Made by a program: the position numbers and the translations under genes. From Eledone cirrhosa (lineage: Eukaryota): a DNA stretch of 64,000 nt. Shown here one piece after another: positions 1-47,270 of the stretch (positions are counted from its first letter, which is position 1; the number at the start of each line of letters is the position of its first letter). The stretch is taken from assembly GCA_964016885.1 (NCBI GenBank), contig CAXHJY010000075.1, forward strand, positions 175,159 to 239,158. Reading direction: 5' to 3'. A model generated the notes under the pieces. That model was not told the DNA's origin, made no database searches, and was given only the letters and a program-made list of their open reading frames with translations.

Positions 1-141
1 TTTATTCAGCTCGTAAGGATGAAAGGCAAGGTTAACCTCGGCGGGATTCGAACTCAGACCGTAAAGGAGTATAACTCTATGCTGCAAAGCATGGTGTCCG
101 ACTCTCTACCGATACTGCCAATCCACCGCCCTAAGAGACCA
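1..141 (-). mobile_element. tRNA-derived SINE, family 1 (ATT-tailed); 3' part runs off the window edge
   Basis: Minus strand reads GGCGGTGGATTGGCAGTATCGGTAGAG (A-box-like) ... GAGTTCGAATCCCGCC (B-box). About ten more copies occur in the window. Confidence 0.8.
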
Positions 142-361
142 ATAATAATAATAATGGTTTCTTATACAGGCACAAGGCCAGCAATTGTTAAATCAACACC
201 AGTGCGTGACTGGTACTATATTTTATCGACCATGTAAGGTTGAAGGGCAAAGTTAACCTAGGCGGGATTTGAACCTAGATAATAAAAGGCCGTAAATCTA
301 TGCTGCAAAGTATGGCGTCCGACTTTCTTCCGATACAGCCAATTCACCGCCCTGAGAGACC
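142..361 (-). mobile_element. tRNA-derived SINE, family 1, full length, in tandem with the previous copy
   Basis: Same head, GTTCAAATCC B-box, and tail GGCCTTGTGCCTGTATAAGAAACC(ATT)n. Confidence 0.8.
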
Positions 362-367
362 AATAAT

Positions 368-424
<57 letters not shown>
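362..424. repeat. (AAT)n microsatellite between the SINE and LINE copy A
   Basis: Read directly. Equivalent tracts lie at 6320-6343, 9888-9923, 15942-15959 and 21712-21726. Confidence 0.95.
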
Positions 425-425
<1 letters not shown>

Positions 426-668
426 TTTTCTTTATTAACCACAAGGGTTTACATAAAGTAGACATTAAGGACAGTACAGGACAATACAGGACGGTACAAA
501 TGGGCATTTCCGCGTGTAAAAAAAAACAGAGGATGAAATAAAATAACAAAGAAAAATTCCCCAATAGGGGGGAGACTTCCGAGGGACATTTGTGGAGAAA
601 GCCCATTAAAAGACCACAGTGGCCCTGACCACCAGGGCAAGTGCCCTCTCCAGTTTTCCACCTTTAAT

Positions 669-3600
669 TTACAGACACATACTCAGAGAAGGCCCATTCA
701 TTCGGGCCATACTTGCTTCTCTCACCCATCTTTCAACAAAATGCTGGGAAGAGAGCACTTCCCTCTCTACCCTGATTTTCCTTTTCAAATGAAATTTGAA
801 AAAGTTAATCAGGGCATCACCGAAGAGGTAAGTGCTCGTCTTCAGCCCTTTCAAACGTGTCCACCATACTATCTCTTTCGCCATGGCCACCAGACAGATA
901 AAAACTGCCTGCCCTTCCAGGCTAAAGGAAGGGGGCGGGGCAATCCTCACGATGGACTCAGCTGATAGCTGGATCCGTCCTACACGTGACAGCAGGTGTT
1001 CGACATAAACCCACAAGTCATCAATGCTCGGACACTGGACGAGTGCGTGCAGGACGGTTTCGTCGCCCTGTGCGCATCTCGGACATGCCCGGCTGACGGC
1101 ACCTCCATGCCTGTAAAGTTTATCCCGAACTGGCAAAGCACTCCGATAGCACTGCCAGGCCAGGGATTTCTGGAAGTTGTCCATAGGCCCCGGCCCGAAA
1201 GTCCTTCCGAAGAGATTGGCTAGTTGATTTTCGTCGACGCCTAGAGTTTCTCCAAGTACGTTGTCGCTCTTCCCCTCCACTAATCCCCTATAGAACGCCA
1301 AGGTGGAGTTTCCACCGATCACATTGCCCGATTGGTCGAGGGCTGTGAGCGCCTGAAGACATTCCAGTCTCCAAGCGCTCCCTCTCGGTCTTCGCTTGAC
1401 CCAGGACTGCAGCTCCGTCAAGGAGACGAGCTGGGGAAAAACGTGTCTAGCAAACGGCGACCACACCTGATCACCGTCGAGGAAGAGGTGGAGATGTCGT
1501 AGCCTGAGCGCGTATCTGCGCATCAACAACCACGGCATGCCCAGCCCTCCACGTAGCGGGTGTTGACAGCAGATGGACGGCCTGACCATCGGAGCGCGTC
1601 CCTTCCACAAGAAGCGAAAGAGCAAACGCTCCAGCGCAGTCAGGCGGGGCTTAGGACAAGGTACGATGGTCAGGCGATAGTAGATGACGGACGCGATGTA
1701 CGCGTTAGCCACCTCCGCTCGACCTTTCAGGGATAGCTTCCTCTCGGCCCATTTCTGGGTGAGAGAAGCCACCCTGCTCGTCACCTCGTCCCAGTTTTTG
1801 TCCGTCTGGAGGTCTGGACCGAACCAGACCCCTAGCAATTTAACCGGTCCGTCCGTCCAGCGCCCGACGACGCTGTTGGACGGCAAGGACCTGCCTCTCC
1901 AGGTGCCTAGCTGCAGGCCCACTGACTTTTCCTGGTTGATCATTACTCCTGTCACCGCTTCGTATTCTCTTAGTGTAGTGCCGATCGCCTCGATGTGTTT
2001 GGCGTTCGACACCACTACGGTGACATCGTCGGCATATACTGACACGGATCTTCCGCATCCTAGTTCGCGCGGCACCCGCCTCAACGTCTCCAGTCTGTGC
2101 AGTAATGGCTCGAGAGTCAATACGTACAATAGGGACGAGAGGGGACATCCTTGGCGGACCGAGCGCATGATGTTGAACGGTTCCGAAAGGTGACCGTTCA
2201 CTCTCACTACAGAGCAGATGTCGCTGTGCATGGCAGCGATCCAGCCTCTGAAGACGGGCCCAAAGCCAGCCGCCCTCAGGACTGCCGCTAGGTAACGATG
2301 GTCGACCCTATCGAAGGCTTTCGACTGATCTAAATTGATCAAAGACCCACCCGTGCCAGGTTCCCTAGCTACCCGCTCTACGATGTATCGCATGAGGTGG
2401 AGGTTGTCGTGAATGGATCTGTCGGGAATGGCGCATGTCTGTGCCTCTCCCACCAGACCACCAACGACAAGCGCCACCCTCTTTGCTAGCACCTTGGCCA
2501 AGATCTTGAAATCTGTGTTTAGCAGTGTTATGGGCCTAAAATTATCTATGTTATCCCCTTGTTCGGATCCTTTCTCAGCAGCGCCACCGCTCCTCGGCTC
2601 ACAGAGCTGGGAATTCTCCCGTTCTGTTGCCAGTTGCAGTAGACGTCCGCCAAGAGGCCTCCGAACAAGTTTGGCATTTGTACGTAAAGTTCATAGGGCA
2701 GACCATCTAAACCAGGCGATTTACCCCTTGTGCAACTAGTCATTGCATCCCGTACTTCAGCGGTTGTTATCGGCTTTTCGCAACACTCCGCCTCAGTGGC
2801 CGAAAGCCGCGGCAGTCCGTCGAGGTAGACACTAAAGTCCATCCCTCGAACCGGCCCGCCACTGCCCCCGAACAGTTGAGCGAAGTGTCGCTGAAAAGCT
2901 TCACACATTTGCCCGGGATCGAGTAGCATGCGCCCGTCGTGGTCCACCAAAGACCGGATCGTGGCTTTGTTGCCACGACGCGCCTCCGCCACTCGGGCCC
3001 ATTGAACGGCTTTCGTCCCCTCGTGTCTGAGAGAACGCACCCTAGCTCTGACAACGCAGCTTTCGTGCTTTGCATTGAAGAATTGGTCAAGGGCCAATTT
3101 CGCCGCAAGTACATCGGTCGCGATACCTTTGCTAAGCGCCTCGTCTAATTTTCTAACTAGTTCTCCCTCTGCTCTATTTTTCTCTATAGCTAAAGCCTTA
3201 CTAAACCTAATGGACTCTATTCTAATTGCTCTTTTCAGAGCAAACCACCACTTGTTGTTGACGATGGCCCCCGTCAACGCCCGCTTAACTAGTTCGCTAA
3301 TCCGGTCTCTGTAGGCCTTGCGCGCTGGTAAGGACGCGTTTAGCTTCCAGTAGCCGGGTCCTCGTCTATGAAGCCTATCTAAGTCAAGCACACACATCAC
3401 GAATTTGTGGTCCGTGTAGCTGACTATCTTGAATTGTGGACAGCCTATGCTAGACCTATCTATTTCCCTACAAAATACTCTATCTAGATATGATCTGGAT
3501 GACCCTATGCGATTTGTCCATATCCACATTGGTACATTCGGGAAATCCATTCGGTACCTGTCAGACAGTTCAAAACGTCTGAGCAGGTTGCTGAGACTCT

Positions 3601-4087
3601 TGCACCCTCCTTCCCTATCCACTAATCCCACACAATCCCAGCGTGCATCTAAGATCCCGTTCCAGTCGCCCACTAACACTAAAGAGCGGGACGTTCCAAG
3701 AAAGGTCTCCAGACGCCGGAAGAAATCAGGCCGCCCTGCTCCTGTCGGGGCATAGACGGCCACTAACCTGAAAGCTTGCACGTCTCCGCTGGTCACGTCC
3801 AGCACCACCAACTTACCTTCTGGGTCCAGGAAGATGGCCCGTATGGCAAGATCCAAACCTCTCCGAAAAAGCACAGCAACTCCTCCCCCCGATCCCGGAC
3901 GGCTGGGAGATGCGTACACATCGTAGCCGCCGAAGATCGGTGCGAAAGCCTGTGCTTCGGAGATTCTGGTCTCGCTGATGGCCACTACATCTATGTTTAG
4001 TGACCTAAGGTCGTTGAGCAGGTGGCCCTGCTTCTAAGACGACTCCAAGTCACGCGCATTTATGCTGCCTATTCTGAGTGAGGTCAT
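669..4087 (-). pseudogene. Copy A ORF2 (APE endonuclease-reverse transcriptase-zinc finger) with one stop and one frameshift
   Basis: ATG at 4087 (MTSLRIGSINAR) and TAG at 4034-4036 where copies C/D have Trp. APE motifs SET, VYAP, GDWN, LDR, TDH. Frameshift in a G-run at ~2555. RT motifs KSPGLDG, DQSKAFDRV, RQGCPLS, YADD, then CPRC..ETVLH..QC. Confidence 0.92.
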
Positions 4088-4121
4088 GTTGAAAAGGAGT
4101 GGAAAAGATGGGAAAGACCAC

Positions 4122-6110
4122 TTACCTTACTTCTCGTAGGGGAAGCACGGTTTTTCCATCCTTTTCACTGCTTGTGGCCTCCTCAGGAAGGATGTCCTTA
4201 TAAATCCTCCTGGAGAGTACTTGTCGGAAGTCTCCGATGTCTTTGGGGAATTTTTTTTTAGTGTCATGTACGTTTTCTGTGTGATGCGAGTGATTTGTAT
4301 GTGTGGAGGTGGTGTGAATTTTGGGGTTGTTGTGTAGTCTTTTTCTGTGATGCTGGTGTTGTGTTGGATGTAGTGTAATAGTTGCTTGTTGTTCAAATTT
4401 AATGCTGTGTAGTGTGTATCGTTTTGGTTGTTTTGTTTTGTTTGCGTTTGTTGTGGGTTTGTTTCTGTTTCGCATTTTGGTGACTTTTGTGGTGTAGGTG
4501 ATGGTGGTGTTGGGGTTAATGATGGTGATGGTGTTGGTGTTTGGGTTGAGGGGGTTGGTGATGTTGGTGTGGATGGTGGCATATCTGTCCTAACTTTTTT
4601 GTTTCTTAATTTATTTGTTTCCCTCTGTATTTTGTTTTTGGAGGGGGAAGGAAGAGAATTTTTTCTTTTTTGGTTTCTTTTTTTTTTCCGGATATCGTTT
4701 CCCACTCCTCGTCGTCACAATCTGTCTCCAGTTGTGATAGGCCGGGGAGTGGAAAATCCTCCACAGGCGTTAGTTTTGGTTGTGGCGTGGTGGATGGTGT
4801 AGGCGCTGGTGCTAGTTCTGAAGTGTTGGGTGGTGGTGGTGTTGGTTTTTCTGGTGGTGGTGGTGGTGTTGGTTTTGCTACTGTTGCTGGGGTTGTTGCT
4901 GTTATAGTTGCTTCTGTTGTTGCTGCTACAGTTGTTGCTGCCATCTCTGCTACTGGTGGTGTTGATGGTTGTGTCACTGGAGTGGGTAGGAGAGGTGGCC
5001 TCAACCTTTTAGCCTGAGGGCAGAAAGCCCTTAGGTTGGTTCCTTCACCACAAACGACACACCTAGGTCTTCTGCCCTCGACAATTACCGTGAGGTGGCT
5101 GCCGTCAGTGAGGTCTATTACCTCTGGGATCTCCTCAATGCTTTTTTGGTCCGCTTGGATCAGGAGCTCCATCCCAGATCCGGACCAGTTTTCCTGCTTA
5201 TCTTTTGCTATTGCTATTATTTTCGTGTTGGCTTCGATGCCGGCGAGGACGGCCGCTATTAGCCAGGGAATTTCGATGGCCGGTGGAACGTGGGTCACCC
5301 TGATCTTTACGAGTCTCTGGCCACAATAGCTTGGGACGAGTGTGAAGTCGTCACTTCTTAATGGGGCCATGGAGTGTTCTCTAGCCTCCTCTGGTGTTTC
5401 AAAGAACACGTCCACGGTTCCATACTTTTGCCCACGTCTGATGTGGGTTTTTCTTGCCCACACATGTCCCAAAGCTTTTTGGATTTGGGACTCGGATGCC
5501 CGTTCCACTCGGCGCGATTTTACATTTATTTTCGATACGACACTGTGCATAGGCGCCGATGCTCCATTTTATTAAGTGGGGGGGGGCTGACCCTGTACCC
5601 ATCTTTCTTTACCATTTGTCTGGCATTTTCTAAATCCTCCTGAGTTACCGTAAATGCTTCGAACTGTTTGGCTACTCTGGCGAAACTGAGGGTGGTTTTT
5701 ATTATGTCATTGTTTTTGTTGTTGCTATCGTTATTTGTGTTAATATTAATTTTAGTTTCAGTTGTGGTGGTGGTGACGTCAGTCGTCTTTGGTGGGGAAG
5801 AGTCCATTTTGCTTGATTTCATTTCGACATCACGAGTTAATTTATTTTTTTCTTCTTTTGTTTCTGTTGTCGCGGTGGTGGTGGGGGTGGTGGTTGTCGC
5901 GGTGGTGGTGGTGGTGGAGGCTTTAACACCTGCAGTCATTGGTAATGGCGGGAAATGAATGTCTGCCTGAGACAAATTTAAAATATTGCTACTGCTTATA
6001 TTTTTTGTCGTATTGGCAAACGTAGTAACATTTACAATGGTGGTGTCGGTGTGAGGTGTTAATTTGTGAGGAAGGCTTTCAGCTGCTTGGTGCAGAGGTG
6101 AATTAGCCAT
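4122..6110 (-). pseudogene. Copy A ORF1 (Thr-rich N-terminus, putative RRM-like region, zinc knuckle, Pro/Thr linker) split by about three single-base frameshifts
   Basis: Track ORFs 5526-6110, 4606-5550, 4127-4705 and 4122-4475 are collinear; the three downstream pieces match the continuous ORF1 of copy D (19549-20790). Knuckle is CVVC-x4-N-x4-C (His in copies B, C, D). Confidence 0.85.
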
Positions 6111-6584
6111 TTTTTTTCAAAGAAATTTTTTGATAATAATAAAGGTTTAAATTTTGGGCACAAGGCCCCAATCTTTTTGGGTGTCCTTTTCGGAAAACAA
6201 TGTATGTGGGCTTATATATGGTTAACAATAAACATTTTCCATAAATGGCAATTTTTAACAAACGGAAATAACAAACCTTTGCGGAGCACACGATGATACG
6301 ATTTACTACGTAGGTCGCCAATAATAATAATAATAATAATAATGTTTTCTTTATTAACCACAAGGGTTTACATAAAGTAGACATTAAGGAGAGTACAGGA
6401 CAATACAGGACGGTACAAATGGGCATTTCTGCGTGTAAAAAACAGAGGATGAAATAAAATAACGAAGAAAAATTCCCCAATAGGGGGGAGACTTCCGAGG
6501 GACATTTGTGGAGAAAGACCATTAAAAAACCACAGTGACCCTGACCACCAGGGCAAGTGCCCTCTCCAGTTTTCCACCTTTAAT

Positions 6585-9170
6585 TTACAGACACATACTC
6601 AGAGTAGGCCCATTCACTCGGGCCATACTTGTCTCTCCCAACAAAATCCATCTTTCAACAAAATGCTGGGAAGAGAGCACTTCCCTCTCTACCCTGATTT
6701 TCCTTTTCAAATGAAATTTGAAAAAGTTAATCAGGGCATCACCGAAGAGGTAAGTGCTCGTCTTCAGCCCTTTCAAACGTGTCCACCATACTATCTCTTT
6801 CGCCATGGCCACCAGACAGATAAAAACTGCCTGCCCTTCAAGGCTAAAGGAAGGGGGCGGGGCAATCCTCACGATGGACTCAGCTGACAGCTGGATCCGT
6901 CCTACACGTGACAGCAGTGGTTCGACATAAACCCACAAGTCAGCAATGCTCGGACACTGGACGAGTGCGTGCAGAACGGTTTCGTCGCCCTGCGCGCATC
7001 TCGGACATGCCCGGCTGACGGCACCTCCATTCCTGTAGAGTTTATCCCGAACTGGCAAAGTTCCCCGGTAGCACTGCCAGGCCAGGGATTTCTGGAAGTT
7101 GTCCATAGGCCCCGGCCCGAAAGTCCTTCCGAAGAGATTGGCTAGTTGATTTTCGTCGACGCCTAGAGTTTCTCCAGGTACGACGTCGCTCTTCCCCTCC
7201 ACTAACCCTCTATAGAACGCCAAGGTGGAGTTTCCACCGATCACATTGCCCGATTGGTCGAGGGCTGTGAGCGCCTGAAGACATTCCAGTCTCCAAGCGC
7301 TCCCTCTCGGTCTTCGCTTGACCCAGGACTGCAGCTCCGTCAAGGAGACGAGCTGGGGTAAGACGCGTCTAGCAAGCGGCGACCACACCTGATCACCGTT
7401 GAGGAAGAGGTGGAGATGTCGTAGCCTGAGCGCGTGTCTGCGCATCATCAGCCACGGCATTCCCAGCCCTCCACGTAGCGGGTGTTGACAGAAGATGGAC
7501 CGCCTGACCATCGGAGCGCGTCCCTTCCACAAAAATCGAAAGAGCAGACGCTCCAGCGCAGTCAGGCCGGGCTTAGAACAAGGTACGAGTGTCAGGCGGT
7601 AGTAGATGACGGACGCGATGTACGCGTTAGCCACCTCCGCTCGACCTTTCAGGGATAGCTGCCTCTCCGCCCATTTCTGGGTGAGAGAAGCCACCCTGTT
7701 CGTCACCTCGTTCCAGTTTTTGTCCGTCTGGGGGTCCGGACCGAACAAAACCCCTAGCAATTTAACCGGTCTGTCCGTCCAGCACCCGACGACGCTGTTG
7801 GACGGTATGGACCTGCCTCTCCAGGTGCCTAGCTGCAGGCCCACTGACTTTTCCTGGTTGATCATTGCTCCTGTCACCGCTTCGTATTCTCTTAGTGTAA
7901 TGCCGATCGCCTCGATATGTTTGGCGTTCGACACCACTACGGTGATATCGTCCGCATATGCTGACACGTATCTTCCGCATCCTAATTCACGCGGGACCCC
8001 CCTCAACGTCTCCAGTTTGTGCAGTAATAGCTCGAGAGTCAATACGTACAAGAGGGACGAGAGGGGACATCCTTGGCGGACTGAGCGCATGATGTTGAGC
8101 GGTTCCGAAAGGTGACCGTTCACTCTCACCACAGAACAGATGTCGCTGTGCATGGCAGCGATCCAGCCTCTGAAGACGGGCCCAAAGCCAGCCGCCCTCA
8201 GGACTGCCGCTAGGTAACGATGGTCGACCCTATCCAAAGCTTTCGACTGATCTAAATTGATCAAGGACCCACCCGTGCCAGGTTCCCTAGCTACCCGCTC
8301 TACGATGTATCGCATGAGGTGGAGGTTGTCGTGGATGGATCTGTCGGGAATGTCGCACGTCTGCGCCTCTCCCACCAGACCACCAACGAAAAGCGCCAAC
8401 CTCTTTGCTAGCACCTTGGCCAAAATCTTGAACTCTGTGTTTAGCAGAGTTATGGGCCTGAAATTATCTATGTTATCCCCCTTGTTCGGATCTTTTCTCA
8501 GCAGCGCAACAGCTCCTCGTCTCACAGAGCTGGGAATTCTCCCGTTCTGTTGCCAGTTGCAGTAGACCACCGCCAAGAGGCCTCCGAACATGTCTGGCAT
8601 TTGTACGTAAAGTTCATAGGGCAGACCATCTAAACCAGGCCATTTTCCCCTTGTGCAACCAGTCATTGCCTCCCGTACTTCAGCGGCTGTTTTCGGCTTT
8701 TCGTAACACTCCGCCTCAGTAGCCGAGTACGTTTTCTGTGTGATGCGAGTGATTTGTATGTGTGGAGGTGGTGTGAATTTTTGGGGTGTTGTGTAGTCTT
8801 TTTCTGTGATGCTGGTGTTGTGTTGGATGTAGTGTAATAATTGGTTGTTGTTCAAATTTAATGCTGTATAGTGTGTAACGTTTTGGTTGTTTTGTTTTGT
8901 TTGCGTTTGTTGTGGGTTTGTTTCTGTTTCGCTTTTTAGTGACTTTTGTGGTGGTGTTGGGGTTAATGGTGGTGATGGTGTTGGTGTTTGTGGTGATGGG
9001 GTTGGTGATGCTGGTGTGGATGGTGGCATATCTGTCCTAACTTTTTTGTTTGATAGTTTATTTGTTTCCCTCTGTATTTTGTCTTTGGAGGGGGAAGGAA
9101 GAGAATTTTTTTCTTTTTTGCTTTCTTTTTTTCTTTTTTCCTGATACCGTTTCCCACTCCTCGTCGTCAC
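6585..9170 (-). CDS. Open ORF fusing the ORF1 C-terminal region to a complete RT-zinc finger, with no endonuclease
   Basis: 861-aa track ORF with junction ...ITRITQKTY|SATEAECYEKP..., then NFRPITLLN, DQSKALDRV, RQGCPLS, YADD, CPRC..H..C. No true ATG start has been established. Confidence 0.8.
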   Translation of the reverse strand: MTTRSGKRYQEKRKKESKKEKNSLPSPSKDKIQRETNKLSNKKVRTDMPPSTPASPTPSPQTPTPSPPLTPTPPQKSLKSETETNPQQTQTKQNNQNVTHYTALNLNNNQLLHYIQHNTSITEKDYTTPQKFTPPPHIQITRITQKTYSATEAECYEKPKTAAEVREAMTGCTRGKWPGLDGLPYELYVQMPDMFGGLLAVVYCNWQQNGRIPSSVRRGAVALLRKDPNKGDNIDNFRPITLLNTEFKILAKVLAKRLALFVGGLVGEAQTCDIPDRSIHDNLHLMRYIVERVAREPGTGGSLINLDQSKALDRVDHRYLAAVLRAAGFGPVFRGWIAAMHSDICSVVRVNGHLSEPLNIMRSVRQGCPLSSLLYVLTLELLLHKLETLRGVPRELGCGRYVSAYADDITVVVSNAKHIEAIGITLREYEAVTGAMINQEKSVGLQLGTWRGRSIPSNSVVGCWTDRPVKLLGVLFGPDPQTDKNWNEVTNRVASLTQKWAERQLSLKGRAEVANAYIASVIYYRLTLVPCSKPGLTALERLLFRFLWKGRAPMVRRSIFCQHPLRGGLGMPWLMMRRHALRLRHLHLFLNGDQVWSPLARRVLPQLVSLTELQSWVKRRPRGSAWRLECLQALTALDQSGNVIGGNSTLAFYRGLVEGKSDVVPGETLGVDENQLANLFGRTFGPGPMDNFQKSLAWQCYRGTLPVRDKLYRNGGAVSRACPRCAQGDETVLHALVQCPSIADLWVYVEPLLSRVGRIQLSAESIVRIAPPPSFSLEGQAVFICLVAMAKEIVWWTRLKGLKTSTYLFGDALINFFKFHLKRKIRVEREVLSSQHFVERWILLGETSMARVNGPTLSMCL

Positions 9171-9669
9171 AATCTGTCTCCAGTTGTGATAGGTCGGGTA
9201 GTGGAAAATCCTCCACAGGCGTTGGTTTTGGTTGTGGCGTGGTGGATGGTGTAGGCGCTGATGCTACTTCTGGCGCGTTGGGTGGTGGTGTTGGTTTTGC
9301 TACTGTTGCTGGGGTTGTTGCTGTTACAGCCGCTTCTGTTGTTGCTGCTACAGTTGTTGCTGCCATCTTTGCTGCTGGTGGTGTTGATGGTTGAGTCACT
9401 GGGGTGGGTAAGAGAGGTGGCCTCAACCTTTTAGCCTGAGGGCAGAAAGCCCTTAGGTGGGTTCCTTCACCACAAACGACACACCTAGGCCTTCTGCCCT
9501 CGACGATTACGGTGAGGTGGCTGCCGTCAGTGAGGTCTATTACCTCTGGGATCTCCTCGGTGCTTTTTTGGTCCGCTTGGATCAGGATCTCCATCCCAGA
9601 TCCGGACAATGGTGGTTTCGGTGTGAGATGATAGTTTGTGAGGAAGGCGTTCAGCTGTGAGTCGGCCAT
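9058..9669 (-). CDS. Copy B shortened ORF1 (start fused to the CCHC knuckle region)
   Basis: ATG at the position homologous to A 6110; CVVCGEGTHLRAFC knuckle. Confidence 0.7.
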   Translation of the reverse strand: MADSQLNAFLTNYHLTPKPPLSGSGMEILIQADQKSTEEIPEVIDLTDGSHLTVIVEGRRPRCVVCGEGTHLRAFCPQAKRLRPPLLPTPVTQPSTPPAAKMAATTVAATTEAAVTATTPATVAKPTPPPNAPEVASAPTPSTTPQPKPTPVEDFPLPDLSQLETDCDDEEWETVSGKKKKRKQKRKKFSSFPLQRQNTEGNK

Positions 9670-9887
9670 GATTTTTCAAAGAAATTTTTTCTTTTGTTTG
9701 ATAATTATAAAAGTTTAAATTTTGGGCTCAAGGCCCCAATCTTTTTGAGTGTCCTTTTCAGAAAACAATGTATGTGCACTTATATACAGTTAACAATAAA
9801 ATGTTTCCATATATGGCAATTTTAAACAACTGAAAATAACAAACCTTTGCGGAGCTCACGATAATACGATTTACTATGTAGGTCGCC

Positions 9888-9923
<36 letters not shown>

Positions 9924-12900
9924 TTCTTTATTGGCCACAAGGGCTGACATCAAGAAAAAACATTACAGACGGCACAGGAAGGTACAGGACGGTACGATGT
10001 GGGTTTTGTACGTGTAAATATTTTTATTATTTATATAAGAAAAGAAAAGAAAAGGACATAGAAACATATATATATATAAACAATAAAAATGAAAATTGAA
10101 ACAATGAAAAATTCCCCAATAGGGGGGAAACCTCCGAGGGTTACTCGTGGCGAAAACCACACAAAAGACCACGGCCACCCTGACCACCAGGGCAAGCGCC
10201 CTCTCTCAATTTATCCATCTCTCAAACTACAGACGTATATTCAGAGTGGTCCCGTTCACTCGGACCATTCTCGCTACATTCACCCACCTTTCAACAAACT
10301 TGCTAGAAAGCAGCACTTGCCTCTCCACCCTGATTTTCCTCTTCAAGTGAAACTTGAAAAGGTTAATTAGGGATTCGCCGAAGAGGAAAGTGTCTGTCTT
10401 TAATCCTTTTAACCTTGTTCACCACACAACCTCTTTCGCCATGGCCACCAGGCAGATGGAAACCGCGCCTGCCCTTCCTCCTCGAAAGAAGACGGTGAGA
10501 CCATCTACACAATGGACTCAGTCGACAACCGGATCAGTCCTACACGCGACAGCAACTGTTCGACATAGCTCCACAAGTCAGCAATGCTCGGGCACTGAAC
10601 GAGTGCATGCACGACGGTTTCGTCGCTCTGCGCGCATCTCGAACAGGCTCCCCGGTAGCACTGCCAAGCCAGGGATTTTTGGAAGTTATCCATAGGTCCC
10701 GGGCTGAAAGTTCTCCGGAAGAGAGCAAACAGGTGATCTTCTTCGCGCCCAGGATCTCTCCAAGAATGTCGTCGCTCTTCCCCTCCACTAGTCCTCTATA
10801 GAACGCCGAGGTGGATGTTCCACCGATACTGGTGCCCAGCTGACAGAGGGCAGTGAGCGCCTGGAGACATTCCAGTTTCCAAGCGCTATCCCTCAGTCTT
10901 TTTCTGACCCAGGACTGCAGCTCCGTCAAGGAGACGAGCTGTGGGCAAACGTGCCTGGCGAACGGCGACCACACCTGTTCACCATCAAGGAAGCACCAGA
11001 GATGTCGCAGCCTCAGCGCATGTTTGCGCATCATCAGCCATGGCATGCCCAGACCTTCACACAACGGGTGTTGACAGCATATGGATCGTTTGACCATGGG
11101 AGCGCGTCCCTTCCACAAAAAGCGGAAGAGGAGGCGCTCCATTTTGGTGAGAGTTGGGCTGGAGCAAGGGACGGCCGTGAGGCGGTAGCAGATGACGGAT
11201 GCGATGTACGCATTCGCTACCTCTACCCGGCCTTTCAGTGACAGCTTCCTCTCGGCCTATTTCTGGGTGAGGGAGGCGACCCTGCTCGTCAACTCGCTCC
11301 GGTTTTTCTCCATCTGGAGGTCCGATCCGAACCAGAAACCGAGAAATTTAACCCGTACGTCCGTCCAACGCCCCACGACGCTGTCGGATGGCATGGACTT
11401 GCCTCACCAGGTGCCGAGCTGCAAGCCCACCGACTTTTCCTGGTTTATCTTTGTTCTTGTCACCGCTTCGTATTCCTTGAGAGCGGTGCCAAGTATCTGG
11501 ACGTGTCTGGTGCTCCACACCACCACGGTGACGTCGTCAGCGTAAGCCGACTCGGATTTCCCGCACCCTAGTTCGCGTGGGACGCCCCTCATCGCCCCCA
11601 GTTTGTGCAGTAACGGCTCGTGAGCCAATACGTATAAGAGGGACGAGAGGGGACAACCCTGGCGGACTGAGCGCATGATGCTGAACGGCTGCGACAGGTG
11701 ACCGTTCACCCTCACAACTGAGCAGATATCGCTGTACATTGCTGCGATCCAACCCCTGAAAACGGGTCGGAAACCGGCTGCCTCGAGGACCGCCGCCAGG
11801 TACCGATGGTCGACCCTATCAAATGCTTTGGATTGATTCAAGTTGATCAGGTCCCCACCCGTGCCAGGTTCCTTAACCACCCTCTCTATGATGTATCGCA
11901 TGAGGTGGAGGTTGTCGTGTATGGATCTGTCCGGAATGGCGCATGTCTGCGCCTCTCCCACCAGACCCTTGACGACAAGCACCAAACTCGTTGCTAACAC
12001 CTCGGCCAAAATCTTGAACTCTGCGTTTAGCAGGGTTATGGGCCTGAAATTATCGATAACATCCCCCTTGTTCGGGTCTTTTCTCAGCAGTGCCACTGCT
12101 CCCCGGCTCACAAAACTGGGAATGCTCCCGTTCTGCTGCCAGTTGCAGTAGACGTCTGCCAAGAGGTCACCGAACAAGTCTGGCATAAATGCATAAAGCT
12201 CGGGCAGACTATCTAAACCTGGCGATTTACCCCTCATGCAGTTAGCCGTATTTCACCGGCTGTATTTGGCTTTTCGCAACACTGTGCTGCGGTCGTCGAG
12301 AACCGAGGCAGTCCGTCGAGGTATGCACTGAAGTCCATACACCGATCCGGCCCGCCGCCGCTCCCGAACAGTTCAGCAAAGTGCTGTTGAAAAGCCTCAC
12401 ACATCTCCTCGGGTTCGAGCAACACGCACCCGTTTTGGTCAGAAAAAGACCGAATTGTGGCTTTGTTGCCACGTCGCGCCTCTGCCACCCGGGGCCATTG
12501 GACGGATTTCGTCCCATCGTGTTTCAGAGCACGCGCTCTAGCTCTGACAACGCACCCTTCGTGTTTTGTGTTGAAGAATTGATCGAGTGCCAATCTCGCC
12601 GCAAGCACGTCGGTTGCGATGCCTGTCCTAAACGCCTCTTCTAGCTTTCTGACCAGCTCTCTCTCTACTCTATTTTCCTCTATCGCTACTCCTTTGCTAA
12701 ACCTAATCGACTCTACTTTAATTGCTATTTTCAGGGCAAACCACCACCTGTTGTTGGCGACTGCTCCCGTCAACGCCCGCTTAACTAATACGCTAATCCG
12801 GTCTCTGTAGGCTTTGCGCGCCGGGAAAGACGCGTGCATCTTCCAGAAACCAGGTCCTTGTCTATGAAGTCTGTCTATGTCGATCTCACAGATCACAAAT

Positions 12901-15272
12901 TTGTGGTCTGTGTAGTCGACTATTTTAAATTGTGGACAACTTATACTAGCCTTATCTAGTTCCCTGCAGAATACCCTATCTAGATACAATCTGGATGACC
13001 CGACGCGGTTTGTCCATGTCCACATTGGCACATTCGGGTGATCCAGTCGATACCTGTCAGACAGTTCAAAACGTCTGAGCAGATTGGTGAGGCTCTTGCA
13101 CCCTCCTCCCCTATCCACTAGCCCCACACAATCCCAGCGTGCATCCAAGATACCGTTCCAGTCGCACACTAACACTAAAGAGCGGGACGTTCCAAGAGAG
13201 GTCTCTAGACGTCTAAAGACATCTGGCCGTCCTATCCCTGTCGGGGCATAGAGAGCTACTAGCCTGAAAGCGTTGCCTTCGGTGCCGTTCACGTCCAGCA
13301 CCACCGACTTACCTTCTTGGTCAAGGAAGATGGTCCGTATGGCGAGACCCAAGCCTTTCCGAAACAACACTGCCACTCCGCCCCCCGCTCCCGGACGGCT
13401 CGGAGATGCGTACACCTCGTAACCGTCGAAGATCGATGCGAAAGCTTGCGTTTCGGAGATTCTCGTCTCGCTGATGGCCACCACATCTATGTTTAGTGAC
13501 CTGAGGTCGTTAAGCAAGTGACCCTGCTTCCAAACCGAGCTCAAGCCACGCACGTTTACACTTCCGATCCTGAATACGGCCACGTTGGGTGAGGTACGGG
13601 GCAAGTGAGAAAGATCACTTACCTTGATCGTCTGGTGAAGGGACCGTTGAACCGTCCCTTCGGCTGGTCGTCGGGACTTCTGTGAGTATATCCGAGTATA
13701 CTCTCCGGTTGAGTGTCCCTCCTAGGTCTCTGAAATCACCAACTGCGTTGGGGAATTTCATTTTAATGTTAGTGTATTGTTTCTGTGATATTCTTACCAG
13801 TCTTATGTTCGTTTGTGTTTTGATTGGTGCTGGTATTATGTAGTCTTGCTTTGAAATGTCTGTGTGTTCAATTATGTAAGTCATTAGTTTCTTGTTGTGT
13901 GTATTTATTGCTGTGCATTTGTTTTTCTGGGGGTTGGGTGGGGTTCTGCTATTTTCTTGTCGTTGTTGCTGGTGTGTGTGTTTTGTTGTTGTGGTTGTGT
14001 TGTTGAAGGTGTTGTTGTGTTGGCGGTGGTGTTGCCGCCGGTGGTGATGGTAGTGCTAGTGTGGGTGGTGATGGTGTTGGTGGTCTTGTTGCTGTAAGCC
14101 TCTTTGCAGTAGCCTTCACCCTTTTTTCATCTCTTCCCTCTCTTTTCGAAGGCGACGATGTGCTGCTTCTGCGTTTGTGCCTTCTTGCGACCTTTTGCCA
14201 GCCCTCTCCCACCTCACACTTCATGTTCGATTCTGTGAGATCGGGGAGGGGTACCAGCTCCACTCTTTCACTTGTTCTTGTTGGTGATCGTTGCAGTGGA
14301 GTCTCTGTTGCAGCTGCAGTTGGTATTACTGTTGTTGTTGTTGATACTTCCACTGCTGCTGCTGTTCTTGATTTCCGTGGCGTGGGTATGGGTGCCACGG
14401 ACCTATCCTTCCTGCTTGCCGCCTGTCCTGTTGCTGGTAGCAGTGGAACCGGTTTCGGAAGGAGGAGGGTTTTCTCCTTTCTCACGGTCTTCTCATTGCA
14501 GAAGGCCCTGAGGTGAGTCTTCGACCCACAGCGAAAGCATTTCGGGCGTTTGCCCACAACACTTATGGGAAGTTCAGTGCCGTTATCGAAGTCTATCACA
14601 TCCGGGATAGCTTCGATAAACTCCTGGTTTCTTTGAATTAACATCTCAATGGAGGCGCCGACCCAATCTTCTCGTACTTTTTTCTGTACTTGCAGTACGG
14701 TTGTTTTGTCCTCGATTCCGACGAGGACAGACGCGGCCAGCCAAGAACGGGCCATCATGGGGAGACTTGGGTCACTTTGACCCTCACAATTTTGTGCCCG
14801 CAGTAGGAGGGCACCGACATCATTTCCTCGCTCCTTAGGGTCACTAAGGATTGAGCCGTTTCCTCCTGGGGTGTGACAAAAAGCACGTCCACGGTGGCAT
14901 ATTTCTTGCCTCGGGTGATATGCGTTTTCCGCTGCCACACAGACCCTAAGGTTTTTTGTATTTGAGCCTCTGTGGCTCTTTCAACCCTACGTGATTTTGT
15001 GCTTACTGTATGGTACGTGACCGTACAGTGCTGTTGGGTTTCGAAAAATTCTTCGGTTGCCTTACAGATTGCTCGGTGTCCGGGTTTCGTCACCATCTTC
15101 CTTGCTTCCTGTAATTCTTCATTTGTTATAAGGATGATTTCCAGATTCTTTGCGATACCTGCAAACGAGATTGGTTTTTCTTTCTTGTTGTTGTTGTCGT
15201 CAGTGCTGCTGTTACTTTTGTGGTTTCTGCTGCTACTACGACCGCCACTGCTTCTGTTGTTGTTGTTGTTGC

Positions 15273-15305
<33 letters not shown>

Positions 15306-15941
15306 TGTTGTTGTTGCTGTTGCTGCTGCTACTGTTGTTGTTTATACTGCTGCTGATGTTGTTGCGGCTGTTACTAGTATTTTTCTCGCCACTGTTGCTG
15401 CTGCTGCTTTTATTACGGCTGCTGCTGCTATTCTTCATGACGTCAGACGAATGAAATGGCCTTCCGTATTTACCGCACACATTTTTCGTCGTCGTCGTCG
15501 TGGAGAAGTGTTCCACGGCACGCGCATTCTCTTGATGAAGAACGCTACGAGAAACTACATTGTTTTTTTCTTTTTCTTTAATGGCGTCGCTTGCGAAAGA
15601 GGCGACACCACATTTAGAGAAGGGAGGGAGAGAGACAATCTTTTCTCTGACGTAATGACGATTGAGGAAGAAGGTGACGGAAAGAGTGGGAGTGACTTGT
15701 GAAAATTCTTTTTTGTAGCCATGTTTTTTTACGGTTTAAAATGAATATTGGGCACAAATCACCAATAACTGGTTATTTAACTCCGAAGGGCCAAATAACA
15801 GGCAGAAAGACCCCTCTCACGAGGAGGATGTCTTTATATACAATTTGGTTCAAATTTTAAACAATTTACAATTGTTATAACGGTTAAAAATTACAATATC
15901 TTACAGAGCAGAGCCTCCGTCAACCAAGGCATTCAGTAACC
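9924..15941 (-). mobile_element. L1/Tx1-clade copy C, diverged subfamily, full length but degraded
   Basis: ORF1 fragments (ATG ~15722; CFRCGSKTHLRAFC; Ser/Asn trinucleotide expansion 15250-15430), APE ORF 12234-13604, RT pieces 11404-12237 and 10540-11142, and a 3' end CCCTTGTGGCCAATAAAGAA(ATT)n. Confidence 0.9.
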
Positions 15942-15959: not shown

Positions 15960-18900
15960 GCTTTCTTTATTAACCACAAGGGTTTACACAAAGTAAGACA
16001 TTAAGGACAGTACAGGACAATACAGCACGGTACAAATGAGCATTTCTGCGTGTCAAAAAAAATAACAGAGGATGTAACAAAAAAAGAAATAATGAAAAAT
16101 TCCCCAATAGTGGGGCGTTCGTTGAGAAAGCTCATTAAAAAGCCACGGTGACACTGACCACAAGGGCAAGTGCCCTCTCCCAGTTTTCCACGTTTAATTT
16201 ACAGGCACATACTCAGAGTAGGCCCATTCACTCGGGCCAGTCTTGCCTCTCTCACCCATCTTTCAACAAAATTCTGGGAAGGGAGCACTTCCCTCTCTAC
16301 CCTGATTTTCCTTTTCAAATGAAATTTGAAAAAGTTAATCAGAGCATCACCGAAGAGGTAAGTGCTCGTCTTCAGCCCTTTCAGACTCGTGCACCATACT
16401 ATCTCTTTCGCCATGGCCACCAAACAGATAAAAACAGCCTGCCCTTCCCGGCTGATAGCCGGATCCGTCCTACACGCGACAGCAGGTGTTCGACATAAAC
16501 CCAAAGTCATTAATGCTCGGACACTGGACGGTTTCGTCGCTCTGCACGCATCTCGGACATGCCCGGCTTCCGGTACTTCCATGCCTGTAGAGTTTATCCC
16601 GAACTGGCAAAGCTCCTCGGTAGCACTGCCAGGCCAGGGATTTCTGGAAGTTGTCCATAGGCTCCAGCCTGAAAGTTCTTCCGAAGAGATTGGCTAGTTG
16701 ATTTTCGTCGACGCCTAGAGTTTCCCCAAGTACGTCGTCGCTCTTACCCTCCACTGATCCTTTATAGAACGCCAAGGTGGAGTTTTCACCGATCATATTG
16801 CCCGCTTGAAGACTCCCTCTCGGTCTTCGCTTGACCCAGGACTGCAGCTCTGTTAAGGAGACGAGTGGGGAAAGACGCGTCTACAAACGGCGACCACACC
16901 TGATCACCGTCGAGGAAGAGGTGATGTCGTAGCCTGAGCGCGTGTCTGCGCATCATCAGCCACGGCATTCCCAGCCCTCCACGTAGCGGGTGTTGACAGA
17001 AGATGGACCGCCTGACCATCGGAGCGCGTCCCTTCCACAAAAAGCGAAAAAGCAAACGCTCCAGCGCAGTCAGGCGAGGCTTAGGACAAGGCACGATGAA
17101 CAGGCGGTAGTAGATGACGGACGCGATGTAAGCATTCGCCACCTCCACTCAACCTTTCAGGGATAGCTTCCTCTCTGCCCATTTCTGGGTGAGAGAAGCC
17201 TGCTCGTCACTTCGTCCCAGTTTTTGTCCGTCTGGAGGTCCGGACAGAACAAGACCCCTAGCAATTTAACCGGTCCGTCCAGCACCCGACAACGCTGTTG
17301 GACGGCATGGACCTCCCTCTCCAGGTGCCGAGCTGCAGGCCCACTGACTTTTCCTGGTTTATCATTTCTCACCGCTTCGTATTCTCTTAGTGTAGAGCCG
17401 ATTGCCTCGATGTGTTTGGCGTTCGACACCACTACGGTGACATCGTCCGCATATGCTGACACGGACCTTCCGCATCCAAGGTCGCGCGTGACCCCGCTCA
17501 ACGTCTCCAGTTTGTGCAGTAATGGCTCGAGAGTCAATACGTACAAAAGGGATGAGAGGGGACATCCTTGGCATCGAGCGCATGATGTTGAACAGTTCCG
17601 AAAGGTGACCGTTGACTCTCACCACAGAGCAGATGTCGTTGTGCATGGCAGCGATCCAGCCTCTGAAGACGGGCCCAAAGCCAGCCGCCCTCAGGTCTGC
17701 CACCAGATAACGATTGTCGACCCGATCGAAAGCTTTCGACTGATCTAAATTGATCAAGGACCCGCCCGTGCCAGGTTCCCTAGCTACCCTCTCCACGATG
17801 TATCGCATGAGGAGGAGGTTGTCGTGGATGGATCTGTCGGGAATGGTGCACGTCTGCGCCTCTCCCACCAGACCACCAACTACAAGCGCCAACCTCTTTG
17901 CTAGCACCTTGGCCAAAATCTTGAACTCTGTGTTTAGCAGAGTTATAGGCCTGAAATTATCTATGTTATCCCCTTGTTCGGATCCTTTCTCAGCAGCGCA
18001 ACAGCTCCTCGTCTCACAGAGCTGGGAATTCTCCCGTGCTGTTGCCAGTTGCAGTAGATGTCCACAAAGAAGCTTCCTAAAAAGTCTGGCATCAGTACGT
18101 AAAGAGCGATTTACCCCTTGTGCAGCCAGTCATTGCCTCCCGTACTTCAGCGGCTGTTATCGGCTTTTCGCAACACTCCAGCTCAATGGCCGAGAGCCGC
18201 GGCAGTCCGTCGAGGTAGGCACTAAAGTCCATCCCTTGATCCGGCCCGCCGCTGCCCCCGAACATGTGAGAGAAGTGTCGCTGAAAAGCTTCACACATTT
18301 TCCCGAGATCGAGTAGCATGCGCCCGTCGTGGTCCACCAAAGACCGGATCGAGGCTTTGTTGCCACGACGCGCCTCCGCCACTCGGGCCCATTGAACAGC
18401 TTTCGTCCCCTCGTGTCTGATAGCACGCATTCTAGCTCTGACAACGCAGCCTTCGTGCTTTGCATTGAAGAATTGGTCAAGGGCCAATTTCGCCGCAAGC
18501 ATGTCGGTCACGATGCCTTTGCTGAGCGCCTCGTCTAATTTTCTAACTAGTTCTCCCTCTGCTCTATTTTTCTCTATTGCTAAAGCCTTACTAAACCTAA
18601 TGAACTCTATTCTAAACGCTCTTTTCAGAGCAAACCACCACTTGTTGTTGACGATGGCCCCCTTCAACGCCCGCTTAACTAGTTTGCTAATCCGGTCTCT
18701 GTAGGCCTTGCGCGCTGTTAATGACGCGTTTAGCTTCCAGTAGCCGGGTCTCTGTCTATGAAGCTTATCTAAGTCAACCTTACAGATCACGAATTTGTGG
18801 TCCGTGTAGTCGACTATTCTGAAATGTGGACAGCCTAAGCTAGACCTATCTATTTCCCTACAAAATACCCTATCTAGATATGATCTGGATGACCCGATAC

Positions 18901-21711
18901 GGTTTGTCCATGTCCACATTGGCACATTCGGCAAATCCTGACGGTACCTGTCAGACAGTTGAAACCGTTTGAGTAGGTTTGCGTGGCTTTTACACCCTCC
19001 TCCCCTATCCGTAATCCCACACAGTCCCAGCGTGCATCTAAGATCCCGTTCCAGTCGCCCACTAACACTAAAGGGCGGGACGTTCCAAGAAAAGTCTCCA
19101 GACTCCGGAAGAAATCAGGCCGCCCTGCTCCTGTCGGGGCATATGCGGTCACTAGCCTGAAAGCTTGTCAGTCTCCACTGGTCGCGTCCACCAACTTACC
19201 TTCTGGGTCAGGAAGATGGCCCGTATGGCGAGATCCAAGCCTCTCCGAAAAAGCACAGCAACCCCTCGCCCCGATCCTGGACGGCTGGGAGATGCGTATA
19301 CATTGTAGCTGCCGAAGATCGGTGCGAAGGCTCGTGCTTCGGAGATTCTGGTCTCGCTGATGGCAACCACATCTATGTTTAGTGACCTGAGGTCGTTGAG
19401 CAGGTGACCCTGCTCCCATGACGACTCCGGGTCACGCGCATTTAAGCTGCCTATTCTGAGTGAGTTCATGTTGAAAAGGAGTGAAAAAAAGATGGGAAAG
19501 ACCACTTCCCTCTCTTCTTCTGGAGGAAGGATGGTTTTTCCGTCCTTCTCACTGTTTGTGGGCCCTCTCCGGAAGGATGTCTTTATAAATCCTCCCGGAG
19601 AGTGTTTGTCGGAAGTCTCCGATGTCCTTGGGTAATTTTGATTTTAATTTTAGCGTCGTGTACGTTTTCTGTGTGATGCAAGTGATTTGTATGTGTGGAG
19701 TTTGTGTGAATTTTTGGCGTGTTGTGTAGTCTTTTTCTGTGATGCTGGTGTGTTGTTGGATGTAGTGTAATAATTGGTTGTTCAAATTTAATGCTGTGTA
19801 GTGTGTATCGTTTTGGTTGTTTTCTTTTGTTTGGGTTTGTTGTGGCTTTGTTTCTATTTCGCTTGTTGGTGGTTTTTGTGGTGTTGGTGATGGTGTTGGT
19901 GTTTGTGGTGATGGGGTTGGTGATGCTGGTGTGGGTGGTGACATAGCCGTGACTAACTGTTTCGTTAGTTTGTTTGTTTCGCCCTGCATTTTGTTTTTGG
20001 AGAGCGAAGGAAGAGGATTTTTCCTTGTTTGGTTTCTTTTTCTTTTCTTTTTTCCAGATACAGTTTCCCACTCCTCCTCGTCGTTACAATCTGTCTCCAG
20101 TTGCGAGAGGTCAGGGAGTGGAAAATCCTCCTCAGGCGTTGGTTTCGGTTGTGGCGTGGTGGATGGTGGAGGCGCTGGTGCTAGTTCTGGTGCGGTTGGT
20201 GGTGGTGGTGTTGGTTTTGCTACTGTTGCTGCTACAGGTGCTGGTGTTGTTGCTGATACAGCTGCTTCTGTTGTTGCTGCTACAGTTGTTGCTGCCATTT
20301 CTGCTGCTGGTTTTAGAGGTGACCTCAACTTTTTAGTCTGAGGGCAGAAAGCCTTTAGGTGGGTTCCTTCGTCACAAACGACACACCTAGGCCTTCTACC
20401 CTCAACGATTACTGTGAGTTGGCTGCCGTCATTGCGGTCTATCACCTCTGGAATTTCCTGTATGTTTTTTTTGTCCGCTTGGATCAGGAGCTCCATCCCA
20501 GATCCGGGCCAGTTCTCCTGCTTTACTTTTATCACCTCAATTACTTTAGTGTCGGTCTCGATGTCGGCGAGGACGGCAGCAATTAGCCAGGGAATTTCAA
20601 TGGCTGGCGGAACCTGGGTCACCCCGATCCTCACCAGCCTCTGACCACAATAGCTTGGGACGAGTGGGAACTCGTCACTTTTTAATGGGGCCATGTAGTG
20701 CTCTCTAGCTTCCTGTGGGGTTCCAAAGAACACGTCCACGGTTCGATATTTTTGCCCACGTCTGATGTGGGTTTTTTTGAGCCCACACATGTCCCAAAGC
20801 TTTTTGTATCTTGTACTCGGATGTCCGTTCCACTAGGCGCGTTTTAATATTTATCGTCCGATATGACACGGTGCATAGGCGCCGATGGTATTAGATGGGG
20901 GGGGGGCTGACCCAGTAACCATATATTTTTTACCTGCGTTTGGCTTCATTCAATTCTTCCCGGCTTACCTCCACCGTTTCATTTTTGTTTGTCGCTTTAG
21001 CAAACGACACACTTGGGTTTGCGCTGGTGTTGACGTTGTTGTTTTTGTATTTCTTATTGTTGCTGTTGTTGTTATTGTTATTTTTGTTATTATTATTTTT
21101 AGTTTCAGTTGTGGTGGTGGTGGTGGTGGTGTCAGTGGCGTTTGGTGTGGAAGAGTCGATTTCGGAGAATCCATTTCGATATCACAAGAAAATAATTTAT
21201 TTTTTGTTTCAGTTGTTGCTGTTCTTTTTGACATTGTGGTGGTGGGGATGGCGGCTTTAACACCTGTAGACGTTGGTAATGGCAGGAAATCCATATTTGT
21301 ATGTGACAAATCTAAATAATTGCCATTTTTGGTGTTGGCATTTTTTTCTGTTTTCTGTATTTTGGTTGTCGCTGTTATTGTTGGAGTTGGTGTGGTAATT
21401 TTTTTTAAATTAGTGTTCTCAGTGTTTGTTCACGTTGTTTGTGGTGGTGTTTGTTGTACCAATTTTTGTAATCCTCCTTTCAACTTTTACGCCGTTGTCA
21501 CATGACAGCAGACATATTGTTGTGGGGCGTGGCTCAGCCATGTTTTTTTTATTTTTTAAAAGTAAAATGTTCAAATATTGCGGCCAAAAGGCCCAAATAT
21601 TATACTTTCCCCTTCACAGGGAAAAGACCAAGGGCTTATACAAGAAAAATTAAACAACAAATAATTATAACAGGTAAATAAAGCGACTTACAGGGAGCGA
21701 GCAAAAAGACC
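15960..21711 (-). mobile_element. L1/Tx1-clade copy D, A-like ORF2 with a different 5' end, degraded
   Basis: ORF1 ATG ~21541 and ORF 19549-20790; many frameshifted ORF2 fragments over 16199-19470 (GDWN, DQSKAFDRV, YADD). Confidence 0.9.
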
Positions 21712-22216
21712 AATAATAATAATAATATATGGGAGTTCATTAAAATGAAGCACACATGATCAAATCACATTACATTGCCTTATATGGTATTTATTAAATC
21801 AAATTATTTTCCTTGTAACAAAATATACCTAAAATATATCTAAAATGTAGTTCCAACAATAATTTTGTATATAACAAAACATGTATGAGACTTATGCTAT
21901 GCAATCCCAGTGGGAACTATGCTTAATTCCATATAGTTTATATAGAATGGTATTAACAAGTTCTGATTCCTTGTGTTAGAAATGATACGAACGTAAACGT
22001 CAAAAATGACAGATATTGCCAAATAATTTTTTTTAAATCTAGAGACTTGCTGTTACATATTACATTTTGATCTTAAATTAAGCTAAATGTAGAAAGCAAT
22101 TTTGATTAATTAAGAACTAATATTGTTGTAAAATTATAAGAACAAATTAAATTAATCAACTGCATCATGACAACACAGACCTAGTGGGCATTAATTCAAT
22201 AGTAAAGCACTAATGA

Positions 22217-30418: not shown

Positions 30419-30658
30419 CAGTCTTTACAAATTCTTCTTCCCAACAGCCATCTATAATTCACGAGGCTGGGCTGAAAAACTCATAGACTGACCATGAAAA
30501 AGTTATGCTACGGCTGTGAAATCTTACATGCATTAATTTCAACGTTTCTTATTAATAACTGCATTGTTTCTTTTCAGGGACTATGTTGAAAAATAAACCT
30601 TATTTGGTCATTCCATGAGAGTATCTTGGTCAACCTATGAATTTTACAGCGGGTTCTC

Positions 30659-30716
<58 letters not shown>

Positions 30717-46346: not shown

Positions 46347-47115
46347 ATAATAATAACAATAATAATATTTTCTTTATTGGCCACAAGGGCCTACATATAG
46401 GGAATAATAATACTTTCTTTATTAACCACAAGGGTTGACATAAAATATAACATTAAGGACAGCGCAGGATGATACAGTATGGTACAAATAGACATTTCTG
46501 CGTGTAAGAAAAAACAAAATTATATATATAATATAATATATACAAAAAGAAAAAAAAGTGTATAGGAGGGAGGGGGCTTCCGAGGGTCATTCGTGGAAAA
46601 AGCCACGGTCACCTTGACCGTCAGGGCAAGCGCCCGCCCCCAGGTTTCTTCCTATGATACTGCAGGCACACGCTTAGGTCAGGCCCATTCACACCGGCCA
46701 TTCTTGCCTCTCTCCCCCACCTTTCAACAAACTGGCTGGAAGGTAGCAATTCCCTCTCCCCTCTCACTTTCCTTTTCAGGTGAAAATAATAATAATGATA
46801 ATGATTTTTAAAATTTTCCACGAAGTGTTAACATTAAGAAAACCTTACAATGGCACAGGATGACAGCATAGAGTGTGTGTGTGTGTGTGGCTTTTGCGTG
46901 TAAACAGGTTTAACGATAGGGGAAAAAAAAAAAAAAAAAAAATGTAGCTATAAAAAATTAAACAATGTCAATTCTTCAATAGGGAGGAGAAGCCCTAATT
47001 TCTAGGGAAAGTACCCTGTCCCAGGTGTCCTCAATAATAATAATGATAATGATAATGATGATGATGATTTCTTTATTAGCAACGCAGGGCTCACATTAAG
47101 AAAGTACGACATAAT
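46347..47115 (-). mobile_element. Cluster of 5'-truncated 3' ends of the same L1/Tx1 family, separated by (AAT)n
   Basis: TTTCTTTATT(GG/AA)CCACAAGGG ends at ~46368 and ~46414, a related end at ~47068, and ORF2 C-terminus FHLKRKVRGERE..FVERW..DLSVCL at 46660-46785. Confidence 0.8.
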
Positions 47116-47270
47116 AATAATTGTTTCTACGTTTGGGCTCAAGGCCAGCAATTATCCCAGCATATTACTGGTGCTTTATTTTATCGACCCCGAAAGGATG
47201 AAAGGCCAAGTTAACCTCGGCGGGATTTGAACTCAGATCGTAAGGAGCCGTAACTCTGTGCTGCAAAGTA
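47116..47270 (-). mobile_element. SINE family 1 abutting the LINE-end cluster through (AAT)n
   Basis: B-box and tail as in other copies. Confidence 0.78.

Follow-up and report, generated by a model that had tools for sequence, protein, structure and literature searches.

A probable partnership between an abundant SINE and Tx1-like LINEs in Eledone cirrhosa, from a common 3′ hairpin motif and a shared ATTAT target site

SINEs can share 3′ tails with the LINEs that mobilize them, and among such pairs UnaSINE/UnaL2, ZfL2-1 and ZfL2-2 belong to the L2 clade and have been proven by assay (PMC4176376, PMC1636434). A short 3′ stem-loop is common to SINE and LINE, its loop conserved and its stem variable, and for L2 elements loop-specific binding by the ORF2 protein has been shown (PMC4176376). 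The pair described here has a stem-loop of the same kind, but its LINEs are L1/Tx1-like and target-specific, the duplications are long, and it is known from sequence alone.

The L1 clade is a noted exception to tail sharing. A 2013 review gave only three SINEs with such a tail, from plants and an alga (PMC3747384), and it is on these cases that the argument over ancestral versus derived recognition of poly(A) is based. The pairs described there, ZmSINE2/3 with LINE1-1_ZM in maize and sorghum and SINEX-3_CR with L1-1_CR in Chlamydomonas, resemble the present one in having an L1-clade tail on the SINE and a hairpin with compensatory changes. In our case the host is an animal, the shared segment is about 25 nt without poly(A), and there is a defined target.

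Two sets of Tx1 elements are also comparable. Crocodilian SINEU is tied to Tx1-Mar by its target and forms tandem insertions around one duplication, as here, but it has an snRNA head and a poly(A) tail, and the accessible part of the report records a failure to find any LINE that shares the 3′ end of SINEU-1 (PMC4494074); the present SINE has a head probably of tRNA type and a hairpin shared with LINEs. Kibi, Koshi and their crocodilian relatives are Tx1 families that, like ours, insert into simple repeats, although theirs are (TC)n, (TTC)n, (TTCC)n or (TTTC)n whereas here one branch uses (ATT)n and another (TATC)n; no SINE partner for them is given in the accessible part of the same report (PMC4494074). 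Judged by its repeats, the present genome looks octopus-like. Among molluscs, the octopus SINEs OK, OR1 and OR2 and the Meta and CORE SINEs are similar in host and apparently in their tRNA-type head. In the accessible text the partners reported for bivalve SINEs are CR1, CR1-Zenon, L2 and Nimb, and Tx1 does not appear as a tail donor (PMC4824008, PMC4758252, PMC11481361). Octopus repeat surveys give both L1-Tx1 elements and abundant SINEs, in the portions available, without pairing them (PMC13282606, PMC8967140). We found no animal SINE/Tx1 tail pair in the literature searched; Repbase Reports, Dfam notes, subscription papers or supplements could hold one.

If tail recognition is stringent in the way proposed below, the pair would extend L1-type SINE tails to an animal and put to the test the view that elements recognizing poly(A) have relaxed from an earlier condition. 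The partnership would moreover identify what probably drives a SINE of very high copy number in this genome, and account for the arrays in which several elements are joined. Since the Tx1 partner has a hairpin that is small and defined, ORF2 frames that look intact and a sister branch with a different target, the question of poly(A) recognition becomes open to testing by simple swaps.

The window, the whole 64,000-nt stretch of DNA that was analysed, contains a head-to-tail array on the minus strand across positions 1-21,726, in which four LINE copies are followed by two SINEs, with ATT runs between them (Table 1). The array, of about 22 kb, is bracketed as a whole by one duplicated target site consisting of ATT repeats then GG(T/C)CT, which recurs at 357 and 136, with the last copy lying beyond the window start. 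A preliminary description of this DNA had quoted four 3′ ends, and all are present on the minus strand, three at the positions tabulated and the second SINE wording near 56,750. It also placed SINEs against LINE ends through (AAT)n at two sites. This is seen where the 3′ end of LINE A meets a SINE head, but at 47116 the geometry differs, and the SINE tail adjoins the 5′ side of a truncated LINE 3′ piece of about 50 nt rather than a LINE 3′ end. Elsewhere in the window, at 30419-31010, a TA run is flanked by a perfect 243-bp inverted repeat, possibly an assembly or hairpin artefact.

Table 1. Positions of the SINE, LINE and target-site features in the window
Feature	Position	Strand	Remarks
SINE copy 2	1..132	-	continues past window start; same tail and last duplicated-target copy
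Duplicated-target copy (ATT repeats then GGTCT)	136..155	-	between both SINEs
SINE copy 1, full length	156..353	-	
SINE tail, quoted wording	156-182	-	
SINE tail hairpin GGC-CTTGT-GCC, predicted	169..179	-	followed by AGAAA
Pol III box B-like motif	265..275	-	from sequence; another SINE copy gave no Rfam tRNA match
Pol III box A-like motif	330..341	-	from sequence
(ATT)n run ending GGTCT, target copy	357..424	-	from LINE A 3′ end to SINE head
LINE A, Tx1-like	425..6319	-	frameshifted endonuclease, RT and zf-RVT pieces
LINE A 3′ end	425-449	-	then (ATT)n
AATAAA in LINE A end	431..436	-	SINE tail lacks AATAAA
LINE A hairpin AACC-CTTGT-GGTT, predicted	437..449	-	
Second LINE copy	6344..9887	-	shortened internally; end as in LINE A
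LINE C	9924..15941	-	hairpin GCC-CTTGT-GGC at about 9934-9944
LINE C 3′ end	9924-9945	-	then (ATT)n
Fourth LINE copy	15960..21706	-	A-like end
Duplicated target, first copy	21707..21726	-	opens array
Tandem of four 5′-truncated Tx1-like 3′ pieces	46367..47100	-	ATT runs as joints
5′-truncated SINE	47122..47270	-	tail adjoins cluster of LINE 3′ pieces

The SINE is about 190 nt long and carries box A-like and box B-like motifs in its head, which is probably of tRNA type; an Rfam search with one SINE copy gave no tRNA match. The central part may resemble the Meta domain. A profile of the SINE matches 194 times in 100 evenly spaced 10-kb stretches, with 135 of these matches extending to the tail, and an exact tail pattern occurs 193,361 times in the genome (control, 0). 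The copies fall into two subfamilies, a short one, whose 66 full copies differ from consensus by a median of 5.6%, and a long one, with 21 full copies and a median of 15%. Short length, high copy number, 5′ truncations and target duplications are all as expected of a SINE. The longer, older subfamily has an additional predicted hairpin and a C-rich run ahead of the tail, as seen in four copies; the C-rich run resembles the 3′ UTR of LINEs D and E and lifts the score of this subfamily slightly in the end comparison below. At three loci the last 26-30 nt of the SINE have inserted alone, with target duplications on the flanks, and one copy (L170), in which the hairpin after the SINE body continues as a LINE-D-type end that includes AATAAA, may be a template-switch chimera.

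A pattern for the LINE end has 21,684 matches in the genome, against 98 for a control pattern. The LINE frames in the window contain endonuclease, RT and zf-RVT domains (Pfam), and all three are present in frames of 1152 and 1167 aa in two copies outside it. The L1 superfamily is characterized by an ORF2 that combines an APE endonuclease and RT with a zinc domain at the C-terminus, and the closest solved protein is human L1 ORF2p (E 6e-37, vs 6e-20 for R2). Preference for a target sequence, a Tx1 trait, is also present, one branch using ATT and one TATC. The Tx1 clade is further marked by a Gag-like ORF1 with a CCHC knuckle; the ORF1 of one copy (L239) has a single CCHC motif and no Pfam match, and comparison of LINE ORF1 with a fish ORF1-ORF2 protein gave no significant match. 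The database proteins nearest to ORF2 are unnamed or carry generic names, so the Tx1 label is a provisional one based on architecture and target preference, and we call the elements Tx1-like.

The sister branch accounts for 20 of 65 anchored ends; its members keep the CUUGU hairpin, insert at (TATC)n or (TA)n, and make target duplications of their own. Of 49 ATT-branch ends, 8 lie inside an (AAT)n tail that belongs to an oppositely oriented Dong/R4-like element.

The SINE and the Tx1-like LINEs end alike. Each has a predicted stem of 3-4 bp closed by a CUUGU loop and followed by AGAAA, and the letters of the stem differ between elements yet still pair, the flanks being AACC/GGTT in LINE A, GCC/GGC in LINE C, GGCC/GGCC in LINE E and TGGC/GCCA in the SINE. 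In an ungapped alignment C-CTTGT-G is common to SINE and LINE ends, with AGAAA in near-equal register, about 16 nt ahead of the target. The likeness extends over about 25 nt and is at the level of a motif. Across seven LINE subfamily representatives, two of which were chosen by motif, conservation peaks in the window of the last 25 columns (0.82 vs 0.02-0.62). AATAAA belongs to the same conserved block of the LINEs; the SINE keeps the loop, the pairing and AGAAA, while AATAAA is gone. We count 30 occurrences of the combination CCTTGTG-N6-12-AGAAA over 400 kb of genome sampled at even spacing, and by our own reading these are 27 SINE tails, 2 LINE ends and 1 lone tail fragment.

The preliminary description had proposed folding the tails, and the same helix is predicted for SINE and LINE rows. 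In a hairpin alignment of 14 ungapped rows, 91% of cells pair and both sides have changed in three of the four pairs. The covariation score was 0.54, compared with 0.20 ± 0.06 in shuffles (0/500) and at most 0.12 in six slid controls, for rows that were chosen by hand and represent two or three independent events. Two measures based on pair counts were not significant on the same 14 rows (164/500 and 259/500 shuffles). RNAalifold recovered the same helix, and the hairpin appears in all 14 single folds (the list omits L099) but is weak, at -2.3 to -10.8 kcal/mol. The second stem pair is G-C in 4/4 SINE rows and C-G in 10/10 LINE rows, and no LINE with the SINE's own stem was found by either of two patterns, the first giving 15 matches, all SINE-derived, and the second none. 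A poly(A) tail of the relaxed mammalian L1/Alu type is absent; an A run follows 0/30 young LINE ends and 1/116 SINE ends. Two features expected of a stringent pair are present, namely a shared 3′ terminal sequence, short and motif-level, and a stem-loop with compensatory changes, from few independent events. Conservation and covariation together suggest that tail recognition may be stringent.

The (ATT)n that follows both kinds of element had been read as a common tail. It is mostly duplicated target DNA. These counts cover the 116 of 135 SINE tails in which a GAAA anchor is present and the 65 of 69 LINE ends that have an anchor, so that 19 and 4 drop out. SINE duplications score at least 10 in 58 of the 116 copies, compared with a mean of 3.85 in 20 permutations. 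They span 8-22 bp (median 15 bp); 44 of the 58 begin with ATTAT, and C or T precedes in 47. ATTAT directly follows 84/116 SINE ends and 35/45 ATT-branch LINE ends, against 0/20 TATC-branch ends and a background of 0.0026 per site. Duplications are found at 24 of 57 ATT-branch breakpoints, many trivial inside repeats but three of them clear outside pure repeats; many of the 33 breakpoints without one are internal rearrangements. SINEs and LINEs differ in that at least four ATT units follow 28/45 LINE ends but 6/116 SINE ends (p 4e-14), which speaks against the pairing.

The LINEs likely copy the SINE, because the two have the same small predicted hairpin and the same DNA target. We put the probability at roughly 0.8 that the ORF2 protein of the ATT-branch Tx1-like LINE mobilizes the SINE, on the evidence of the common 3′ hairpin motif and the ATTAT target duplication. 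The partnership proposed in the preliminary description is thus supported by tail structure, target-site signature, adjacency and overlapping ages, but the match is short and motif-level and (ATT)n lies outside the tail. We regard the observation as real and the partnership as well supported.

In the mechanism that we envisage, ORF2p would bind the CUUGU stem-loop, and the endonuclease would nick the strand opposite Y/ATTAT. The ...AAT-3′ end released in this way could then serve as primer for reverse transcription, some 16 nt below the loop, and its partner would probably be AUU transcribed by read-through of the donor flank. The SINE tail would likely derive from an older LINE end and have since lost AATAAA. 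The duplicated target would remain a target, each insertion inviting the next, and LINEs and SINEs would so pile up; that insertion has been repeated at one site, with head-to-tail arrays as the result, is seen directly.

More than the hairpin is needed to explain the pairing, because the sister branch, which has the same hairpin, has left no imprint where SINEs insert. Judged by the first base, at most 1/116 SINE ends could follow the TATC-branch target, and a same-strand SINE comes after 10/49 ATT-branch ends but 0/20 TATC-branch ends (Fisher p 0.053, two-sided). The missing mark of the TATC branch would be accounted for if base pairing of the RNA 3′ end with the nicked target served as a second key. 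That an animal L1-superfamily (Tx1) element combines stringent recognition of the CUUGU stem-loop with such a second key is a tentative proposal, which we would put at a little under an even chance; it would account for two sister branches with one hairpin and a SINE amplified, to about 200,000 or more copies, by the ATT branch only.

The need for the hairpin in mobilization is less sure than the partnership itself. The Tx1-like LINE might mobilize the SINE loosely, with AUU priming and target choice decisive and the hairpin a relic or an element of 3′ processing. The TATC-branch target without SINE copies would fit such a scheme, as would the weakness of the stem and the position of AATAAA within the conserved block, and crocodilian SINEU was assigned to Tx1 by its target, no LINE with the SINEU-1 3′ end being found in the accessible text (PMC4494074). 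Yet the SINE has retained loop, pairing and AGAAA while losing AATAAA, the stem changes are two-sided, and in none of four other sequencing runs does any variant of the SINE hairpin reach 20%. We consider loose mobilization doubtful. These four runs are filed under other organism codes, two of them at low depth; SINE and LINE are both present in the contigs of all four, with ATT-type loose ends after the LINE end in two.

To place the likeness among other LINEs, 24 LINE ends (9 Tx1-like and 15 others, from about 2 Mb of stretches) were aligned, anchored at the end, with the tails of both SINE subfamilies. The top seven are all Tx1-like, with scores of 14-25 for the tail of the short subfamily and 20-28 for that of the long subfamily, and the other two Tx1-like ends do not match. 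The 15 others, from CR1, Dong/R4, TACA-tailed, RTE, RTE-X and RNase H-bearing families, score 11.5 at most. The 99th background percentile is 13.5 (short tail) and 15.5 (long tail), in a background set whose three best scores look like missed SINE tails. The resemblance of the SINE tail to Tx1-like ends is therefore beyond chance, with 7/9 Tx1-like ends above that percentile and 0/15 others, and a better match to CR1, L2 or another LINE, named at the outset as the finding that would count against the pair, was looked for and found at none of the 15 non-Tx1 ends. A tight SINE-tail profile gave 290 matches in 1.77 Mb, 283 beside SINE bodies and 7 lone tail pieces, and no LINE, Tx1-like ends included (LINE ends below 12 bits). 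The likeness is specific but short, since 7/9 Tx1-like ends match while the tight profile reaches no LINE end.

The present branches might only resemble the true partner, which would then be a LINE that has escaped sampling or died out, either from a different Tx1/L1 lineage carrying the G-C pair or of L2, Nimb or Jockey type; in our estimate this is improbable. In favour of such a partner, the exact stem of the SINE is in no LINE found, the ATT runs after LINEs and SINEs differ in length, and the comparison covers 24 ends from about 2 Mb, with L2 probes (PF09004 and a protein motif, 0 matches each) that are uninformative on the presence of L2. Against it, all of the tight-profile matches are SINE bodies or lone tail pieces, and SINE copies at 2.5-5% from consensus overlap LINEs A and C in age. 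Copies of LINE C lie 1.5-6% from consensus, those of LINE A mostly 1-7% and those of LINE D 5-19%, figures inflated by mixed subfamilies. A comparison of ages had been suggested from the start, and the LINE ages overlap both SINE subfamilies. The order of events could not be read from SINEs nested within a LINE body, the single match being judged an artefact of the reference flank.

Mobilization by a young (ATT)n-tailed CR1, Dong/R4 or RTE element, with the Tx1 likeness due to chance, is largely refuted and very improbable: CR1 is abundant (11,891 end matches), with many long open frames and a true (ATT)n end on the sense strand, but its end scores 1.5-2 against the SINE tails and duplications flank 0/22 of its non-tandem truncated copies, while Dong ends in (AAT)n on the opposite strand and RTE in (GAT)n, with scores of at most 8.5. 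Three of 25 truncated CR1 copies do score as duplications, all of them tandem copies of the element's own end; 5 of 30 copies, longer than the locus, were left out. Without target duplications, the young CR1 was rejected as partner; Dong/R4, RTE, RTE-X, TACA-tailed and RNase H-bearing LINEs were rejected because their 3′ ends do not match.

The window has a CR1-like LINE of its own (59499-63160), with an open endonuclease-RT frame and its 5′ side within a long TA-rich repeat. It was set aside as a partner, since the SINE-tail match at 63475-63535, which looked like its end, belongs to a different fragment lying 300 nt further downstream, and the LINE itself ends in a GTAAAAGA repeat. The young CR1 family has a hairpin-like motif of its own before (ATT)n. 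It may supply fresh target sites, and at one locus a SINE lies after its tail. RTE-like frames at two loci ending in (GAT)n have a PHD finger beside the RT domain, and the RNase H-bearing LINEs, which we take to be Ingi/Vingi-like, end in (CAA)n.
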